A stretch of 64,000 bases of DNA from Escherichia coli (GTDB lineage: Bacteria > Pseudomonadota > Gammaproteobacteria > Enterobacterales > Enterobacteriaceae), in the NCBI RefSeq assembly GCF_013122565.1, contig NZ_CP053258.1; one strand, given 5' to 3'. Under the pieces are notes generated by a model. It was not told the DNA's origin. It worked only from the letters and a program-made list of their open reading frames with translations, and made no database searches. The translations under genes and the position numbers were made by a program. This document shows positions 26,967-58,441 of the stretch, piece after piece; position 1 is the stretch's first letter, and each line of letters starts with the position of its first letter.

Positions 26967-27401
26967 CAGTGTTTCTCCTTTCGCCCGCCAGAGTAAAAAG
27001 CAACCGTTTACGTTAATGAAACTGTCTAAACACATGCTCGTGGAGTGCCAGTTTTTGCGAGGAAGGGGAGTTAGAGACAGGAATTGCGGAGGCAATCACA
27101 TAATCGTGCTTAAACCACGAAAATGACAAGAGAACCTGACAATGGAATTATCTGTAATTTTCTCATATTGATATTTCATTAATCATTCTGGCATGTCGCA
27201 CTCTCGCATTTAATCGTTTTTATCTGGATAGCGCTCTTTTGATCGGCAATGTTGAAATAATGAAAGCGGCATAGATTGAGGGGCAATAATTTGAACTCAG
27301 TCGCAAAATTATAATTAAAACGGTCATGCTACCTAATATATGCCCGTTTATTGCATCGCGAAATTTGAGAAGACATAACTCATTAAATGAAAGGGATGCA
27401 A

Positions 27402-29844: not shown

Positions 29845-31212
29845 TTAGATTGCCCAACCACCCGCGTAAAATGCGACCAGTGCGGCAGTAATGATCACCG
29901 TACCAATATTCAGCTTTTGCCATTCGCGTGCAAAGACGCGGCCTACGACCAGTGTCACAAAGCCCAGCATAATACCGGTAACGATATTACAAGTCAGAAC
30001 GATGAACACGGCACACACCAGGCCAGCCATAGCGTCAATAAAATCATTGAAATCCAGCTTCGAGACGTTACTTAACATCAGCAAACCCACGTACATCAGA
30101 GCGGGTGCAGTGGCGTAACCAGGGATCAAAAATGACAGCGGTGATAAGAACAGAATCAGCAGGAATAACGCCCCCACTACGGTTGCGGTTAACCCTGTTT
30201 TACCCCCGGCGGCGGTTCCTGCCGCTGATTCGATATAAACCGCTGCGGGCGCTGCGCCCACCAGACCGGAGAATATTGAACTTACTGAGTCACTGGTCAG
30301 GGCTTTGCCGCCGTTGATGATCTGGTTGTCTTTATCCAACAAATTCGCCTGACCGGCGACAGCACGGATGGTGCCAGTAGCGTCGAACACTGCGGTCATC
30401 ACCAATGCCAGTACACTCGGAAGTACAGTTGGCTGGAGTGCGCCCATAATATCGAGGCTGAAAATCAGAGACTTACCATCTTCGCCAGTCAGGCTTGGCA
30501 TCGCCACCAGACCGTGGTATTTCACCGCTGGGTCAAAGATTAAGCCGATGATCGAAATTGCAATAATCACCAACAAGATCCCGCCGGGTACGCGACACTT
30601 CTCCAGACCGAAGATGACCGCCAGCCCCAGCAAGCTCATCATCACCGGGAAGGAGGTAAACGCACCGAGCGCCACTGGCAAGCCTTCAATCGGGTTTTTG
30701 ATAACCATACCCACACCGTTAGCAGCAATCAGCAGCAGAAACAGCCCGATACCGATACCTGTACCGTGAGCGATACCCATCGGCAAATTACGTAAGATCC
30801 AGGTACGCACACCGGTTACGGAAATGGCGGTGAAGATGACGCCCATCAGAAAGACCGCGCCCAGTGCGACAGGAACGCTAATTTGTTGCCCGAGTACCAG
30901 ACTGAATGCGGTAAACGCCGTCAGGGAAATCGCGCAACCAATCGCCATTGGCAAATTGGCCCATAACCCCATCAGCAACGAGCCGAAGCCCGCGACCAGA
31001 CAGGTGGCAACAAACACAGCTGCGGGAGGAAAACCTGCTTTGCCCAGCATTCCCGGAACAACGATAACGGAATAAACCATGGCCAGAAAGGTCGTTAAGC
31101 CAGCCAGTACTTCCTGACGAACGGTACTGCCACGAGCGGTAATTTTAAAATAATTATCCAGCGCGCCCTGTGGCTTTGGTGCGTCCGGTGTTTGTAGGAT
31201 GTCTCCAGACAT
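29845..31212 (-). CDS. ghxQ: guanine/hypoxanthine permease (NCS2 AzgA-like)
   Basis: 455 aa polytopic transporter [34 protein letters not shown]. Confidence 0.9.
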
Positions 31213-32581: not shown

Positions 32582-33982
32582 TTAATCCATCTCTTCCGCT
32601 GAGGTAATACCAGGCAGAACGTTTTCCTGTCGGTAGCCACCAGGGAGGATAATATTTAATAAAATCGCAGTTAACCCGCCAGCACAAATAGGGTTTTCAA
32701 CTAATACATAAATAGAGGCTGGCAATATTTTAAAAATTTCGGGATCGTAGGAGACGCCAAGCCCTAAACCTAAAGAAGTGGCGACAATAAGTGTTTCACG
32801 CCGCTTTAATCCGTTGGTGATGATGATGCGAATCCCAGCGATGGCAATCATGGAAAACATCAACGTCATTGCGCCTCCCAGAACTGCCGAGGGAATGGTC
32901 GTGAAGAAGCCGCCAATCATCGGAAATAAGCCGAGGATAACCAGCATTACCGCGATGGTTCGCCCGACATAACGTGAAGCGACGCCAGTCATCTGAATAA
33001 CCCCATTATTTTGCGCAAACGTGGTTAATGGTAATGAACCGACAGCGGAGGCGATAACAGAAACCAGACCATCTGCCAGCACGCCGCCTTTCAGTCGGGA
33101 CTGATACTCTTCCCCCTGAATGGGGCGGCGGGAAACCATTGCCGTGGCGGTGATATCGCCGACTGCTTCCAGCACGCTAAGCAGATAAATCGTGCCAACC
33201 ACCAGGAACTGATGGAAGCTAAAACTAAAGCCGTATTTGAACGGATGCGGGATGGTGATTAACGGCAAATTGCGCATACTGCTGAAATCCACCATGCCCA
33301 GGCATAACGATGCGATATAGCCGACACATAGCCCAATGGCGATCCCTCCCATGCGTAGCAACGGACTGCGACAGCAGTTAAAGCCGATCACCACAATTAA
33401 AACCAATAAACCAACGCCGAGATGTTCGTAATTGCCGAACGTACCACTGCTTTTGGCTGCAAATCCTCCACCAAAATCGATAATGCCGACTTTAATCAGG
33501 CTTAAGCCGATCATCAGTACCACAATACCGCTGACGGTAGGCGTAATAACCCGACGTAAATAGGGCAAGATAAATGAAGATCCGACAACCAGAAATGCGC
33601 CAACGAAGGAGACGCCGAGAAGCGACGACATGATTAACTCTTCGTGAAAACCGTCGCTTTTCATGCTGCTGCCCAGCGCAATCATGACCGTAACAAATGA
33701 AAAATTGACTGACTGAATTGAGAGTAGGCCAGAACCGACGATGCCGTAGCGGTTTACTTGTAACCAGGTACCAATACCAGAGGCGATCATCGCCATAGAA
33801 ACAAGATAGGCGGTTGTTTCAGCGGAAAGCTGTAAGGCCGCACCCACGATTAACGCGGGGGTTACCATCGGAACGAAAATTGCCAACAGATGGGTAATGG
33901 CACCAACGAGAGACTGATGAAAGGGAGGGCGATCCTCCAGTTCAAATATAAGGTCAGAACCTGCATGGTTTATATCAGACAT
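32582..33982 (-). CDS. xanQ: xanthine permease (NCS2/NAT family)
   Basis: 466 aa from MSDINHAGSDLIFELEDRPPFHQ; NAT signature region. Confidence 0.9.
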   Translation of the reverse strand: MSDINHAGSDLIFELEDRPPFHQSLVGAITHLLAIFVPMVTPALIVGAALQLSAETTAYLVSMAMIASGIGTWLQVNRYGIVGSGLLSIQSVNFSFVTVMIALGSSMKSDGFHEELIMSSLLGVSFVGAFLVVGSSFILPYLRRVITPTVSGIVVLMIGLSLIKVGIIDFGGGFAAKSSGTFGNYEHLGVGLLVLIVVIGFNCCRSPLLRMGGIAIGLCVGYIASLCLGMVDFSSMRNLPLITIPHPFKYGFSFSFHQFLVVGTIYLLSVLEAVGDITATAMVSRRPIQGEEYQSRLKGGVLADGLVSVIASAVGSLPLTTFAQNNGVIQMTGVASRYVGRTIAVMLVILGLFPMIGGFFTTIPSAVLGGAMTLMFSMIAIAGIRIIITNGLKRRETLIVATSLGLGLGVSYDPEIFKILPASIYVLVENPICAGGLTAILLNIILPGGYRQENVLPGITSAEEMD

Positions 33983-42273: not shown

Positions 42274-42594
42274 AACCCTCTCCTTAGCTTATACAGATAT
42301 CATTGAGTGACCGGTGTTGAGAAATCCGGTGGTTTAGGGGGATAGAGCAACAATCGCACCACTCTTGCCAGGTTTGGCGGGAAATATAAAAAAATGTGAG
42401 GCGGCTCGAAACTTAAGGGCTTTTTGTGAATGAACTCACAGGTGCCAAATGAGAATTAAAATCACTCCTGAAAATTATTATTGCCAGCCCATTTATCACT
42501 TTTTCTCTTTTCTCAAAATTAGTGATTCCTTATCATTATGATAAAGAGTGCTGGAGGGGTTAAATATTTGAACGCAATCGTTTAACTACGTTTT

Positions 42595-43275: not shown

Positions 43276-44046
43276 GTGAAAAGTATAGTTGACCCATCGG
43301 CATTATTCATTGATTTAGGTGCACAGAAACGTCCCACTGTGATTTCTGTTGTTGGTGCTGGGGGGAAAACCAGCTTGCTTTTTTGGCTGGCAGAACGGCT
43401 CCAGACTAGCGGCAGGCGTGTGTTAATCACGACGACGACACATATGTTTATGCCAACGTCACACTGGCCCGTGGTTTTCTGTCGTGATCCCGCCATGCTT
43501 CCTCATGCGTCTCTTACATCCCCCATTTCATTTTGTTTTCACAGCTGGAAAGCGAACCAGGGAAAAGTGCAGGGATTTACGCCAGAAGCGATTGATGCAC
43601 TGGTGCAACGACCAGAGTGTGACGTAATTCTCATTGAAGCAGATGGCTCGCGTGGAATGCCGTTAAAAGCCCCTGATGAGCACGAACCTTGCATACCCAA
43701 AAGCAGTTGCTGCGTGATTGCTGTGATGGGAGGACATATTTTGGGCGCGAAAGTGAGCACAGAAAATGTCCATCGCTGGTCGCAGTTTGCTGATATTACC
43801 GGGTTAACACCTGATGCAACCTTGCAACTGAGCGATCTCGTTGCGCTGGTTCGCCACCCTCAGGGGGCGTTTAAAAACGTACCGCAAGGTTGTCGGCGAG
43901 TCTGGTTCATTAACCGTTTTTCTCAATGTGAGAATGCGATTGCGCAAAGCGAGCTCCTTCAACCGCTGCAACAACACGACGTAGAGGCAATCTGGCTGGG
44001 CGATATACAAGAACATCCTGCAATCGCGCGCAGATTTGTGAATTAG
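43276..44046 (+). CDS. yqeC: YqeC-family accessory protein of selenium-dependent molybdenum hydroxylases (P-loop)
   Basis: 256 aa with Walker A-like VVGAGGKTS; paired with yqeB. Confidence 0.85.
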   Translation: MKSIVDPSALFIDLGAQKRPTVISVVGAGGKTSLLFWLAERLQTSGRRVLITTTTHMFMPTSHWPVVFCRDPAMLPHASLTSPISFCFHSWKANQGKVQGFTPEAIDALVQRPECDVILIEADGSRGMPLKAPDEHEPCIPKSSCCVIAVMGGHILGAKVSTENVHRWSQFADITGLTPDATLQLSDLVALVRHPQGAFKNVPQGCRRVWFINRFSQCENAIAQSELLQPLQQHDVEAIWLGDIQEHPAIARRFVN

Positions 44047-49624: not shown

Positions 49625-50821
49625 TTAAGGTGCTACAGCGTGTTTGCCTTCCCAGACAACTTCGCGGTAGTGCTTCACGTCGGTGTCGCCTTCAGTGCTG
49701 ATAACCAGCACTACGGCATCTTTGTTCAGCGCCAGTTTTTGCATCAGGCTTTGACGTTGCGGGTGATAATGAACCGCCGCGAGAACGCCCAAACCGACAG
49801 CGCCGGATTCACCGGAGATGATGCGCGGGTCGTTGCCGTACGGATTACCCAGCACGCGCATACCTAATGCGGCAACGCTGTCCTGGCAGGAGATGAATTG
49901 GGTGGCGCAGTTACGTAGGATTTCCCAGCCCAGCGGGTTAGGTTCGCCACAGGCCAGGCCCGCCATGATGGTGGCCATATCACCGCCAACGTTGACGATG
50001 TCGCCTTTGACGCCGGAGCGATAAATACAGTCAGCTTTGTCAGGTTCAACAATAATGCTGTGCAGATTTTGCGGGCTGTAGACGTCGACCAGATAACCCA
50101 GCACACCACCGGCCATTGCACCGACACCGGCTTGCAGCAGAACGTGTGTCGGGGTTACGCCCATTTCACGCATTTGCTCGACGGCTTCATCTGCCAGTGT
50201 TGCGTAGCCTTGCATGATCCAGGTTGGGATTTTAGTGTAACCTTCCCATGCCGTGTCCTGTACCACTTCCCAGCCGTGCTGCTGCGCGTGTTGCATGGTC
50301 AGGCGAACGGTATCGTCATAGTTCATATCCGTGACGATGCACTCGGCACCGAGGTTCAGAATGGCGTCAACGCGTTCCTGAGCAGAACCTTTCGGCATGT
50401 AAATCACCGCATTCTGTCCGAGTTGCTGTGCTGCCCACGCCACACCGCGCCCGTGGTTGCCGTCGGTGGTGGTCGCGAAAGTCATTTTTTCGCCGATGGC
50501 ATTTTTCAGGTGCTCAAATGACAGCGTTTCGATATCAAGATGATATTTTTCACACAATAATTGAGCGATGGCGTACGCACCGCCGAGCATTTTGAAGGCG
50601 TTCAGACCGAATCGTTTTGATTCGTCTTTGACGAGAATTTTCTTCACACCAAAAAGGTTTGCGAGATCGTCCAGCGCACAAAGCGGTGTTGGGCGATAAC
50701 CAGCTATTTTCTGGTGGAACTGGCGCGCCAGTTTGGCCTGGCTTTGCGAAAAGAGCGGTGATGTTTCGCCGTTGAAAAATTTGTTATCGGCGATATCAAT
50801 CTTCAATGAGAAAACGGACAT
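49625..50821 (-). CDS. ygeX: 2,3-diaminopropionate ammonia-lyase (PLP-dependent)
   Basis: 398 aa, tryptophan-synthase-beta-like PLP fold; the alternative name for this gene is dpaL. Confidence 0.9.
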
Positions 50822-50878: not shown

Positions 50879-52069
50879 TTATTTCACGCGTTCTTGCGCT
50901 TCTTTCAGCAGTTGCTCGAGCAGTGCACCTGGTTTGGCGTATTTACGGGACAGGATCATCGCGGCGATGATATAAGGCTTCCAGCTGGCTTCTTTGTAGG
51001 TAGCGATACGGTATTTTTCGAATACGCCTTCAGTCACTTCACCTTCTTTGCAGGATACGCCGCTGATATCAGCTGGCAGGCAGTGCATGTACAGGGCTTC
51101 GCCATCACGGGTCAGTTCCATCATCTCTTCAGTACAATGCCAGTCTTTGTGTTGCGCGTTCTGTGCCAGACACTGTTTTTCCAGTGCTTTTAAGCCTTCG
51201 TGGTCGTTTGCACGCAGCAATTCAGTACGCTCTTCCATCACTTTGTAAGGTGCCCATGACTTCGGATAAACGATGTCTGCGTCTTTGAAGGCTTCTTCCA
51301 TGCTGGTGACCTGACGGAAGCTACCACCGGAGGCTTTAGCATTGTTTTTCGCCACTTCAACCACATCCGGGATCAGGTCGTAGCCTTCCGGATGGGCCAG
51401 GGTGACATCCATACCGAAGCGAGTCATCAGACCGATGATGCCTTGTGGTACAGAGAGCGGTTTGCCATAGCTTGGGGAGTAGGCCCAGGTCATGGCGATT
51501 TTTTTACCTTTCAGGTTTTCCAGTGAACCAAAGTGTTCACGTAACCATGCCAGGTCAGCCATTGACTGAGTCGGGTGGTCAATATCACATTGCAGGTTCA
51601 CTAAAGCCGGACGTTGCGGCAGAACACCCTGCTTGTAACCGTCATCAAGTGCAGCGCCAACTTCACGCATATAGGCGTTGCCTGCGCCCAGATACATATC
51701 GTCGCGAATACCAATAGCGTCGGCGCAGAAGGAGATCATATTGGCGGTTTCACGCACGGTTTCGCCGTGAGCGATTTGTGATTTGCCTTCGTCGAGATCT
51801 TGCTGTGCAAGGCCGAGCAGGTTAAGCGCGGAAGCATAAGAGAAGCGGGTACGAGTGGAGTTGTCGCGGAATACGGAAATACCTAATCCACTGTTAAAGA
51901 CTTTGGTTGAGATGTTTTCAGCACGCAGTGCTTTTAATGCTGCGGCAACGTCCAGTACTTGTTTCAGTTCATCTGGCGTCTGTTCCCACGTTAACAAAAA
52001 ATCTTTCTCGTGAAGGTGAGAGGTCAGCGAATTGATATCCTTAATCAGCTCATTAACAGTTTTCATCAT
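50879..52069 (-). CDS. ygeW: carbamoyltransferase-family protein (OTC/ATC fold, substrate unresolved)
   Basis: 396 aa with STRTR carbamoyl-phosphate-binding motif and HCLP motif. Confidence 0.9.
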   Translation of the reverse strand: MMKTVNELIKDINSLTSHLHEKDFLLTWEQTPDELKQVLDVAAALKALRAENISTKVFNSGLGISVFRDNSTRTRFSYASALNLLGLAQQDLDEGKSQIAHGETVRETANMISFCADAIGIRDDMYLGAGNAYMREVGAALDDGYKQGVLPQRPALVNLQCDIDHPTQSMADLAWLREHFGSLENLKGKKIAMTWAYSPSYGKPLSVPQGIIGLMTRFGMDVTLAHPEGYDLIPDVVEVAKNNAKASGGSFRQVTSMEEAFKDADIVYPKSWAPYKVMEERTELLRANDHEGLKALEKQCLAQNAQHKDWHCTEEMMELTRDGEALYMHCLPADISGVSCKEGEVTEGVFEKYRIATYKEASWKPYIIAAMILSRKYAKPGALLEQLLKEAQERVK

Positions 52070-52544
52070 AAAGTCCCGGTAGTGGAATGACAGGCAAAGT
52101 GGTTTATTTCACTGTGACTTGCCAAAGTGATTGGTGTTTTCACAGCTATACTTGGGACTAACAATAAGTGTGCCAGAATTATCCACGGGGCTGCAAAAGA
52201 CTAATTTGACGGATAATGTGTGGGGTTGATCACAAATTGATGCCAGCTTCCGGTTGTTTGTAAAATACGAAAACGTTTGGCTTTTTTTATCGCGTTATTT
52301 ATTTGCTGCTAAGTATCAGAAATAAGATAAAGGGGCAGGCTATCCCTCGTCAGTTTGATAAACTCACCGCCGTAATTCTCATATTGATATAGAAATGTGA
52401 TATCTCTTCCATAATTTCATTAGAAAGTGATAAAAATCTTATGTTTTTATCAAAGCCAATTTCGCCTGAGTTAATATCATCATGATCTGTGAACCATCAA
52501 CGTCTTCAATGATCGACTTTTAAGTAAGTCTGGAAGGTAAAGCT

Positions 52545-54323
52545 ATGGAGCTTGCTACTACGCAGTCAGTATTGATGCAAATTCAACCGACAATTCAGCG
52601 TTTTGCCAGAATGCTTGCCAGCGTTTTGCAGCTTGAGGTTGAGATCGTTGATGAAAACTTGTGTCGCGTCGCCGGAACTGGCGCGTATGGGAAGTTTCTT
52701 GGTCGCCAGTTGAGCGGCAACTCACGCCTGCTCCGCCACGTCCTGGAAACGAAAACTGAAAAAGTTGTGACACAGTCTCGCTTCGATCCCCTTTGTGAAG
52801 GTTGCGATAGTAAAGAAAATTGCCGCGAAAAAGCATTTCTGGGTACGCCTGTCATTTTACAGGATCGTTGTGTTGGGGTGATAAGTTTGATTGCCGTTAC
52901 CCACGAGCAACAAGAGCATATTAGTGATAATTTACGCGAATTTTCTGATTACGTTCGCCATATATCCACCATTTTTGTTTCGAAACTTCTGGAGGATCAG
53001 GGACCAGGAGATAACATCAGTAAAATATTCGCGACCATGATCGATAATATGGATCAGGGCGTATTAGTTATTGATGACGATAATCGGATTCAGTTTGTTA
53101 ATCAGACAGCCTTAAAAACACTCGGTGTTGTGCAAAATAATATTATTGGGAAACCTATCCGTTTCAGACCATTAACATTTGAGAGTAATTTTACCCATGG
53201 ACATATGCAGCATATTGTTTCGTGGGACGATAAAAGTGAGTTAATCATTGGTCAATTGCATAACATTCAGGGCCGACAATTATTTTTAATGGCGTTTCAC
53301 CAATCGCATACCAGTTTTTCTGTAGCAAATGCACCTGATGAACCGCATATTGAACAATTGGTTGGCGAGTGCCGTGTTATGCGGCAATTAAAACGACTCA
53401 TTAGCCGTATTGCACCCAGCCCATCCAGCGTTATGGTGGTTGGTGAAAGCGGCACGGGTAAAGAAGTCGTCGCCCGTGCAATCCATAAGTTGAGCGGAAG
53501 ACGGAATAAACCCTTTATTGCTATCAACTGTGCCGCGATTCCGGAGCAGCTTCTGGAGAGCGAACTGTTCGGTTATGTTAAAGGCGCATTTACTGGCGCT
53601 TCTGCCAACGGTAAAACAGGGTTGATTCAGGCGGCGAATACGGGCACGCTGTTTCTCGATGAAATAGGTGATATGCCATTAATGTTGCAGGCTAAATTAC
53701 TGCGCGCTATTGAGGCACGTGAAATTCTGCCGATTGGTGCCAGTAGCCCAATACAAGTCGACATTCGCATCATTTCTGCAACTAACCAGAATTTGGCCCA
53801 GTTCATTGCAGAAGGTAAATTCCGCGAAGATCTCTTCTACCGACTTAATGTTATCCCGATAACTCTGCCACCGCTGCGTGAACGTCAGGAAGATATTGAA
53901 CTACTGGTGCATTATTTTTTACATCTGCATACCCGTCGTCTGGGATCGGTTTATCCGGGCATTGCTCCCGATGTCGTCGAAATATTGCGTAAGCATCGTT
54001 GGCCCGGAAACCTGCGCGAGTTAAGCAATTTGATGGAATATCTGGTTAACGTGGTTCCTTCAGGTGAAGTTATCGACAGCACGCTATTGCCGCCAAATCT
54101 GCTGAATAATGGCACAACGGAGCAAAGTGATGTAACAGAGGTCAACGAGGCGCACCTGGCACTCGATGATGCGGGCGGCACGGCGCTGGAGGAGATGGAA
54201 AAGCAAATGATCCGCGAGGCGCTTTCACGTCATAACAGCAAGAAGCAAGTTGCTGATGAACTGGGCATCGGCATTGCTACGCTCTATCGCAAGATTAAGA
54301 AATATGAGTTGTTAAACACATAA
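52545..54323 (+). CDS. ygeV: sigma54-dependent transcriptional activator (bacterial enhancer-binding protein)
   Basis: 592 aa; AAA+ core with Walker A GESGTGKE and the sigma54-contact GAFTGA motif; C-terminal HTH; N-terminal sensory region. Confidence 0.9.
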   Translation: MELATTQSVLMQIQPTIQRFARMLASVLQLEVEIVDENLCRVAGTGAYGKFLGRQLSGNSRLLRHVLETKTEKVVTQSRFDPLCEGCDSKENCREKAFLGTPVILQDRCVGVISLIAVTHEQQEHISDNLREFSDYVRHISTIFVSKLLEDQGPGDNISKIFATMIDNMDQGVLVIDDDNRIQFVNQTALKTLGVVQNNIIGKPIRFRPLTFESNFTHGHMQHIVSWDDKSELIIGQLHNIQGRQLFLMAFHQSHTSFSVANAPDEPHIEQLVGECRVMRQLKRLISRIAPSPSSVMVVGESGTGKEVVARAIHKLSGRRNKPFIAINCAAIPEQLLESELFGYVKGAFTGASANGKTGLIQAANTGTLFLDEIGDMPLMLQAKLLRAIEAREILPIGASSPIQVDIRIISATNQNLAQFIAEGKFREDLFYRLNVIPITLPPLRERQEDIELLVHYFLHLHTRRLGSVYPGIAPDVVEILRKHRWPGNLRELSNLMEYLVNVVPSGEVIDSTLLPPNLLNNGTTEQSDVTEVNEAHLALDDAGGTALEEMEKQMIREALSRHNSKKQVADELGIGIATLYRKIKKYELLNT

Positions 54324-54842: not shown

Positions 54843-55717
54843 TGCAATTTTCCCCCCGCCGCGGCGACGGCTTCGCTAATCACTTTTTTGGTCATCGTCT
54901 GGATGAGATGCAGACGAAACTCTTTACTGGCCCGCCATGAAGAACGCGGGGCGACATCTTGCAGGACAGATTCGCTGATAGCTTCCAGCGTTTGCAGTTT
55001 TAATGGCGCATTTTGTGCAGTCTGTTCGGCATGTTGGCAGCGAATCGGCGTTGGCGCGGCAACACCAAATGCCAGACGTAATTCGCTGAAATTGCCGTTA
55101 TCCAGTCGGCAATGTGCGGCGCAGCCAATCGTTGAAATATCCATTGCGTCGCGCATGGCATATTTAAAATGCGCGCTGCCCGCGTGTTCTTTCGGCTGGG
55201 GCGGAAAATGAAAGGCGACAAGGATTTCGTCATGCTCAAGAGACACTTTGCCCGGCCCAGTGTGAAAGCCATTAATCGGGACGAAACGAACACCGCGTGG
55301 GGAGTGGATCTCCAGCTTTGCGTCATAAATTAGCGTTGGCGTGGCAGAATCTGCGCTGGTGGCACCGTTGCAAATATTTCCACCGTAGGTAGCGACGTTA
55401 CGGATCTGCGGTCCGGCAATGGATGAGGCCGCAGCACATAACGCCGGGAGATGACGTTGAGTTACAGGATCTTCAATGAGCTGGGTAAATGTCGTTGCAG
55501 AGCCGATACGTAGCGAGCCATCTTCCGCCAGCGTAATTCCCCGCAATTCCGCCAGATTATGAATATCAACAATATGGCGATAACGGTCATTGTGATGGTG
55601 GAGCTGAATCAGTACGTCAGTGCCACCGGCGAGCAGTTTGGCCTGCGGGTTGTCAGCCAGCAGGTTGATGGCATCGGCAAGGGTTGCTGCGCGATGGTAA
55701 GAAGCAAAATCAAACAT
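54839..55717 (-). CDS. xdhB: xanthine dehydrogenase FAD-binding subunit
   Basis: 292 aa CO-dehydrogenase flavoprotein fold; overlaps the xdhC start. Confidence 0.9.
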
Positions 55718-58080: not shown

Positions 58081-58097
58081 GGCAAGATTTACGCCAG
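58081..58097 (-). promoter_or_regulatory. candidate sigma54 -24/-12 promoter upstream of xdhABC
   Basis: minus-strand sequence cTGGCgtaaatcTTGCc with GG-N10-GC spacing, about 95 nt upstream of the xdhA ATG; sigma54 activator gene ygeV is adjacent. Confidence 0.35.
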
Positions 58098-58441
58098 AAA
58101 CGACGATAAGCGTTAAGGGAGGAAGGAAGTGTGATGATGTTAAAAAAAACACAGATATGATACGAAACAGGACCCTGAATAGGGGCAGTGATACGTATCA
58201 ATATGAGTGGCGATAAAATCAATGTGATAAATTGGGATTATTACGCATCAGGATGGGAAATAGGGTAAATGAGTCAGGAAATTCGATACCTCTACAGTGA
58301 ATATTTTGCTGATGATACTTCCCTTTGCCAAATGAAATTAATCTCTTTCTCTATTACTGCGTTTTTCCAGAAGCAAGAGATTGGGTATCAAGAGGCTGGC
58401 TGCTATGATATGGCGTCTTGTTTTTTAAGCGAGGAAAGATT

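Follow-up and report, generated by a model that had tools for sequence, protein, structure and literature searches.

Catabolic sigma-54 promoters with a divergently encoded activator are exemplified by prpBCDE, which is served by the enhancer-binding protein PrpR and subject to CRP catabolite control. The ygeW locus of Escherichia coli shares with prpBCDE a divergent enhancer-binding protein and probable CRP control, whereas pathway and activator differ. Promoters of the sigma-54 family form a closed complex that stays locked unless an upstream AAA+ activator contacts sigma-54 and hydrolyses ATP. According to reviews and Schaefer et al. (PMC4551910), the C of the -12 element is located at a repressive fork-junction structure, and a less conserved C at this position correlates with low-level activator-independent transcription. 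Two promoters lacking this C, pspA (TTGGCACGCAAATTGTA) and pspG (TTGGCATGATTCTTGTA), carry TTGT at -12 and are flagged as experimentally confirmed in Table 1 of Bonocora et al. 2015 (PLoS Genet, PMC4591121). Like ygeW, they combine a consensus -24 TGGCA with TTGT at -12 and are bound in ChIP-seq, but they differ from ygeW in their activator (PspF), in the physiological signal and in occupancy, with a fold-above-threshold (FAT) of 21 and 15 versus 3. Because both are confirmed, TTGT is a known functional variant, which answers the worry raised in a preliminary description of this DNA that the degenerate -12 of ygeW might abolish function.

YgeW carries out the phosphorolytic cleavage of a 2-ureido group, and ygeW, dpaL and ygeY provide late steps of reductive uric-acid degradation (PMC12507026 among other sources). 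This pathway of gut bacteria, in which ygeW supplies the carbamoyltransferase step, is linked to host urate and gout, and work to engineer it in probiotic E. coli already replaces the same ygeV/ygeW spacer that is analysed here (PMC12507026 among the sources). In the YgeV iModulon, ygeWXY, xdhABC, ygfK and ygfT are co-expressed, and ygfT expression is reportedly lowered in a ygeV mutant. Three sigma-54 sites of this set lie with ygeW in the window, by which we mean the whole stretch of 64,000 nt of E. coli DNA that was analysed and to which all positions refer:

58081..58097, sigma-54 site of xdhA, ChIP-verified
42346..42362, sigma-54 site of ygfK, ChIP-verified
27339..27355, sigma-54 site of ygfT, ChIP-verified

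All three resemble ygeW in belonging to the same cluster and the same iModulon and in having a TATCA-N3-TGATA sequence upstream. Unlike ygeW, they show the consensus C at -12 (TTGCC, TTGCT and TTGCA), and the spacing between the candidate enhancer and the promoter differs from that at ygeW; the -24 boxes of xdhA and ygfK are less perfect than the one of ygeW. ChIP occupancy was lower at ygeW (FAT 3) than at xdhA (11) and ygfK (26) (PMC4591121).

The window covers the E. coli ygeV/ygeW region in an orientation reversed relative to K-12, with the following features around the divergent spacer:

52070..52544, ygeV/ygeW intergenic spacer, 475 bp, between the divergent genes
50879..52069, minus strand, ygeW, based on the list of open reading frames, RefSeq annotation and the Pfam domains OTCace_N and OTCace
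52545..54323, plus strand, ygeV, divergent from ygeW, a sigma-54 enhancer-binding protein according to Pfam and RefSeq

The spacer has exactly the length of 475 bp given in the preliminary description; 5180 of the 5426 complete E. coli genomes contain it, with an identity of 95-99.6%. YgeW is annotated by RefSeq as a knotted carbamoyltransferase and by Pfam as an OTCase-fold enzyme, and dpaL (ygeX) and then ygeY follow downstream on the same strand. On the other side of the spacer, RefSeq lists YgeV as a sigma-54 interaction domain protein, followed by xdhCBA. Pfam assigned to YgeV a PAS domain, a Sigma54_activat AAA+ domain (E 6e-71), an AAA lid and an HTH_8 domain. Besides the PAS domain it has an uncharacterised N-terminal region (residues 1-160), and it lacks a receiver domain, so that the label 'orphan response regulator' (PMC9426417) does not fit the domain content.

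Upstream of ygeW, the spacer contains a sigma-54 element and a start site predicted from it:

52160..52176, minus strand, sigma-54 -24/-12 element CTGGCACACTTATTGTT, based on the sequence, a weight matrix, identity with ChIP-seq site OS30 and conservation
52149, minus strand, predicted start of transcription, 80 nt ahead of the ygeW ATG, rule-based

The string quoted for this element in the preliminary description, cTGGCACacttaTTGTt, is indeed present as the reverse complement, but at 52160..52176 rather than at 52161..52177, an offset of one base. Its reading as a perfect -24 with a degenerate -12 was borne out: compared with TGGCAC-N5-TTGCW, both TGGCAC and the spacing are perfect (-24 GG at 52172-52173), while the -12 TTGT keeps the G and has a T in place of C, reading GT and not GC. 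The element faces ygeW on the sense strand, with the first base of TGGCAC 106 nt and the end of the motif 90 nt ahead of the ygeW ATG, which agrees with the earlier estimate of about 100 nt and with the orientation and distance to the gene start expected for a sigma-54 promoter. The element had also been placed directly opposite the ygeV start; it is in fact 368 bp away from the ygeV ATG. The transcription start was predicted by the rule of Bonocora et al. 2015 (PMC4591121), which sets it 19 bp downstream from the centre of the motif.

The same 17-mer has been described before. Row OS30 in Table 1 of Bonocora et al. 2015 (PMC4591121) is a sigma-54 ChIP-seq peak with an identical 17-mer (peak centre 3004190, plus strand, b2870 ygeW, distance 80, PSSM 9.837, FAT 3, no EcoCyc flag at that time). 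With 17-mer, gene, orientation and 80-nt distance identical, the ygeW element and OS30 are the same object, and the sigma-54 site of ygeW has thus been known since 2015; the proposal was correct but not new. The OS30 peak overlaps region 3003550-3004653 of an independent ChIP-chip study (PMC4591121, S3 table). In addition, Shimada et al. 2021 (PMC8743547) reported a genomic SELEX peak of the RpoN holoenzyme at 3004270 in the ygeV/ygeW spacer, with 53-55% relative intensity for the reconstituted holoenzyme (PMC8743547). Binding of the sigma-54 holoenzyme is therefore documented in the literature by ChIP-seq, ChIP-chip and SELEX, and the lack of sigma-54 binding in ChIP, which the preliminary description had named as speaking against the element, is contradicted by the OS30 peak. 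The motif of the window strain shows no differences from OS30. Position 52152, which follows the motif at a distance of 8 nt downstream and precedes the predicted start by about 3 nt, is a private A; the base is G in K-12, O157:H7 and three other E. coli strains. Among the 5426 complete E. coli genomes, none matched the 81 bp around 52152 at 100%.

For weight-matrix scoring, a check already named in the preliminary description, we used 130 published sigma-54 ChIP-seq sites, the 5 sites within the window being excluded from the 135. CTGGCACACTTATTGTT scored 13.8 bits (per-position P ~1e-5) and was the third-best of the 128,000 window positions, exceeded only by the published xdhA and ygfK sites, and it ranked 82nd among the 135 ChIP-seq sites. 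In 64 kb, between 1.2 and 2.7 scores of this height are expected, so that for the window as a whole the sequence by itself cannot decide the question. When only the spacer was shuffled, 55 of 5000 shuffles reached the score of the motif. Further sigma-54-like motifs of 11.8-12.8 bits were found on the plus strand at 33868..33884 and 55003..55019 and on the minus strand at 30361..30377 and 51153..51169; all four appear to fall within genes, and the high-stringency list of Bonocora et al. 2015 contains none of them. An intragenic site that has been published, IS34 in yqeC, maps to 43677..43693 on the plus strand.

Conservation of the promoter was examined in the 400 nt upstream of YgeW homologues at 80 loci, of which 37 are gamma- or beta-proteobacterial loci with a YgeW of 79% identity or more. 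At 36 of these 37 loci, the best match on the sense strand scored 11.4-15.4 bits, and the best antisense matches were mostly below 9.5 bits. The motif ended 65-110 nt before the ygeW ATG in 35 loci and 228 nt before it in one Photobacterium. Upstream of the ygeW homologues of Bacteroidota, Riflebacteria and other distant loci, the motif was missing. The divergent neighbour was ygeV in most proteobacterial loci, and three loci (L016, L018 and L024) had the promoter but no ygeV within 4 kb. In a spacer alignment of 19 Enterobacterales, TGGCA and TTATTG.T were invariant at a mean column identity of 37%, and across five diverse E. coli strains the 17-mer was invariant while adjacent bases varied. 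Published PSSM scores for other genera are 9.46 in Citrobacter, 9.84 in Yokenella, 10.55 in Raoultella and 0.07 in Cedecea (PMC4591121, S5 table). A different 17-mer, TTGGCCCGGGCAATGAA, found about 110-380 nt upstream of the ygeW homologues of Bacteroidota and Riflebacteria (L039-L079), was rejected as a regulatory motif or riboswitch: it is coding sequence of an upstream M20 peptidase (ygeY-like) gene, reading ...GFGPGNEV.AHAPNEK..., and Rfam gave no family above threshold for 12 loci carrying it.

The unusual base at -12 is a common property of the ygeW promoters of these bacteria. At motif position 16, 125 of the 135 bound sites have C, 6 have A and 4 have T, and G does not occur. In 36 of the 37 proteobacterial loci, this position holds T, A or G: T in most Enterobacterales, G in most Photobacterium, and A in Aeromonas, some Serratia, Erwinia and Betaproteobacteria. 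C is possibly present in one locus only, a Rubrivivax genome bin (L035) with ATGCA. We do not claim selection against C, as the loci represent only about five or six independent lineages and the pattern is not statistically significant. In an in vitro transcription library from Pseudomonas putida, -12 boxes with TTGAAT and with TTGCAT were both recovered, and TTGCAT was the only one in the strongest class, which fits the low occupancy of ygeW (FAT 3). We infer that the T at -12 lowers the occupancy of ygeW within the regulon without abolishing binding.

Upstream of the promoter, a second conserved region is a candidate binding site for an activator:

52351..52415, unstranded, conserved upstream block and candidate YgeV enhancer, from the alignment of 19 Enterobacterales
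52377..52389, core palindrome TATCAATATGAGA (ygeW sense), centre at about -234, of the TATCA-N3-TGATA type
52390..52402, flanking half-site TATCACATTTCTA
52351..52362, flanking half-site TTTATCAAACTG
52475..52487, second, weaker palindrome TATCATCATGATC, centre at about -332, 58 bp from the ygeV ATG
27161..27173, palindrome upstream of ygfT
42531..42543, palindrome upstream of ygfK
58217..58229, palindrome upstream of xdhA

The last three lie 150-200 bp upstream of the respective sigma-54 sites. While the core reads TATCAATATGAGA in E. coli, it reads TATCAATATGATA, that is TATCA-N3-TGATA, in most genera, and TATCA, TGA and TCAC are invariant columns of the alignment of 19 Enterobacterales. Allowing at most one mismatch, TATCA-N3-TGATA has 6 matches in the window versus 1.5 expected, a number that none of 100 shuffles reached. 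Of the six matches, five precede the four ChIP-verified sigma-54 sites by 150-335 bp, with centres at -234 and -332 for ygeW, -153 for xdhA, -202 for ygfK (a perfect copy) and -199 for ygfT; the chance probability of this placement near sigma-54 sites is 1.4e-8. From the core palindrome to the -24 box, the distance is about 210 bp at ygeW, compared with an enhancer-to-promoter distance of about 130 bp at xdhA. Moreover, ygeW and ygfT have the 15-mer ATATCAATATGAGAA in common, in opposite orientations (0 of 2000 shuffles). The sixth match, a perfect copy (TATCAAGATGATA) at 50533..50545, lies within the coding sequence of dpaL/ygeX, and no sigma-54-like motif of at least 8 bits was found within a few hundred bases downstream of it; this copy is either a chance match or an unexplained internal site.

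The palindrome is also found in other species. In 34 of the 37 proteobacterial loci it occurs between -160 and -275, and it is 44-fold enriched at -400 to -100 compared with the remainder of the loci, and three other genera have weaker matches at -332 to -336. The recognition helix of YgeV, LGIGIATLYRKIKKY, is identical in all loci with both the palindrome and a detectable YgeV C-terminus. Covariation of helix and palindrome was considered and found to be too weak, as the loci lacking the palindrome (L034 and L036) differ by a single conservative residue in the helix. The suggestion in the preliminary description that the spacer may carry enhancer sites is thus supported by the palindrome, which is conserved and recurs at three further promoters of the cluster.

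Between this block and the promoter lies a CRP-like site:

52219..52234, unstranded, CRP-like site TGTGATCAACCCCACA, one mismatch to TGTGA-N6-TCACA, centre at about -77.5

Its position relative to the sigma-54 motif is kept at -76.5 to -78.5 in Enterobacterales and Aeromonas, and the columns GTGA and C..CA are invariant or nearly so across 19 Enterobacterales genera; the window as a whole does not contain significantly many CRP-type cores. In line with this site, a study from 2025 (PMC12507026) mentions a 'native Crp-binding site' in the spacer and reports that glucose represses uric-acid degradation. CRP-like sites differ in strength within the cluster, being strong at ygeW and ygfK and weak at xdhA and ygfT. 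Upstream of the sigma-54 promoter of ygfK, there is a perfect TGTGA-N6-TCACA core at 42425..42440 (centre at about -97.5), and xdhA and ygfT have weaker cores with two mismatches at about -68 to -76. An inspection by eye gave no convincing match to the IHF consensus between enhancer and promoter.

Taken together, we consider it likely that 52160..52176 is the sigma-54 promoter of the ygeW-dpaL(ygeX)-ygeY operon in the cluster for anaerobic uric-acid degradation, and that it operates with YgeV and CRP as follows. Sigma-54 polymerase bound at ygeW would be unable to open the DNA without an AAA+ enhancer-binding protein. This activator would be YgeV, whose divergent gene lies 368 bp away. YgeV may assemble on the palindrome and half-sites at about -205 to -265, with the second copy at -332, and would reach the promoter by DNA looping, ATP hydrolysis then driving open-complex formation. 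Transcription would start near 52149, producing an 80-nt leader, and continue through ygeW, dpaL and ygeY. CRP at -77.5, between enhancer and promoter, would make expression depend on glucose being absent, probably through a bend in the DNA. Such a native control region, with its sigma-54 promoter, CRP site and enhancer, would account for the silence of the cluster in standard media and for the escape of the engineered strain from glucose repression once the region had been replaced.

A real sigma-54 site need not fire. Bonocora et al. (PMC4591121) point out that binding at a site does not make it a promoter, found most sites nearly silent under their conditions and warn that many of the 135 sites may be non-productive. 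The ygeW site could accordingly be poised or a decoy, with a CRP-dependent sigma-70 promoter at another place in the spacer driving ygeW, and the low occupancy (FAT 3), the CRP-like site and the reported glucose repression are all compatible with this. We nevertheless regard it as improbable. A consensus scan of the spacer for sigma-70 promoters gave no more matches than expected from shuffles and no usable promoter, the only match on the minus strand overlapping the start codon. Furthermore, the CRP-like site keeps a constant spacing to the sigma-54 motif and not to any -10 box, and the orientation of the motif, its distance to the ATG and the upstream palindrome are kept across gamma- and beta-proteobacteria, which would be hard to explain for a useless site.

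Given a functional sigma-54 promoter at ygeW, its dependence on YgeV is most likely, as indicated by co-expression in the YgeV iModulon and the shared upstream motif; no paper in the literature searched reports a direct YgeV dependence of ygeW transcription. The TATCA-N3-TGATA palindrome is probably the YgeV enhancer, an assignment made from sequence by association only. The AT-rich GATA repeats of the palindrome loosely resemble other operators, which speaks against this assignment, and a factor other than YgeV could bind there. The greater distance of the palindrome from the promoter at ygeW than at xdhA and the perfect copy within dpaL also count against the model. Neither a YgeV binding motif nor a YgeV-bound site is reported in the literature searched, with RegulonDB and EcoCyc outside its scope. 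The promoter might thus be served by another of the approximately dozen enhancer-binding proteins in E. coli, or by YgeV acting from solution without a specific enhancer, the palindrome belonging to a different regulator. Besides the lack of reported YgeV binding, the loci that have the promoter but no ygeV nearby (L016, L018 and L024) would agree with this. On balance we find it somewhat less probable still than a site that never fires, as most loci have ygeV as their divergent neighbour, the palindrome accompanies four sigma-54 promoters from a single co-expressed set that is named for YgeV, and the YgeV helix does not vary wherever it can be compared alongside a palindrome. A chance resemblance to the sigma-54 consensus, without binding or function, is highly improbable: such a score is expected one to three times per 64 kb and the GC dinucleotide at -12 is broken, but binding in three independent experimental data sets (ChIP-seq, ChIP-chip and SELEX) refutes it, and the motif is conserved across bacterial orders. 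Between the two readings offered in the preliminary description, a second YgeV target or a chance match, the latter is hence dismissed by binding data and conservation, and the former stands as a likely inference.

With regard to the proposed YgeV-dependent promoter, the sigma-54 site itself adds nothing new. The only items that may be unpublished are the enhancer palindrome and the cluster layout of enhancer, CRP-like site and sigma-54 promoter. We see about an even chance that TATCA-N3-TGATA is an undescribed YgeV motif, common to ygeW, xdhA, ygfK and ygfT and kept together with an invariant helix from Enterobacterales to Aeromonas, Photobacterium and Betaproteobacteria, and that the ygeW -12 without C is possibly tuned for lower occupancy or a different threshold than the other promoters of the regulon. 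With a defined enhancer motif for YgeV, the regulon could be predicted in other species.

Two minor observations concern the leader and start of ygeW. In a search of the spacer and ygeW leader for structured RNA, the sole Rfam match was a meaningless snoRNA (E 0.43). The 3' end of the leader, its last ~25 nt (GCCTGTCATTCCACTACCGGGAC; 52070..52110, alignment columns 780-825), has no Rfam match either and is conserved across Enterobacterales to an extent that exceeds the needs of a ribosome-binding site. The ygeW start itself (52064..52069) consists of two consecutive ATG codons, of which the K-12 RefSeq record uses the first (1191 nt) and other E. coli records the second (1188 nt).
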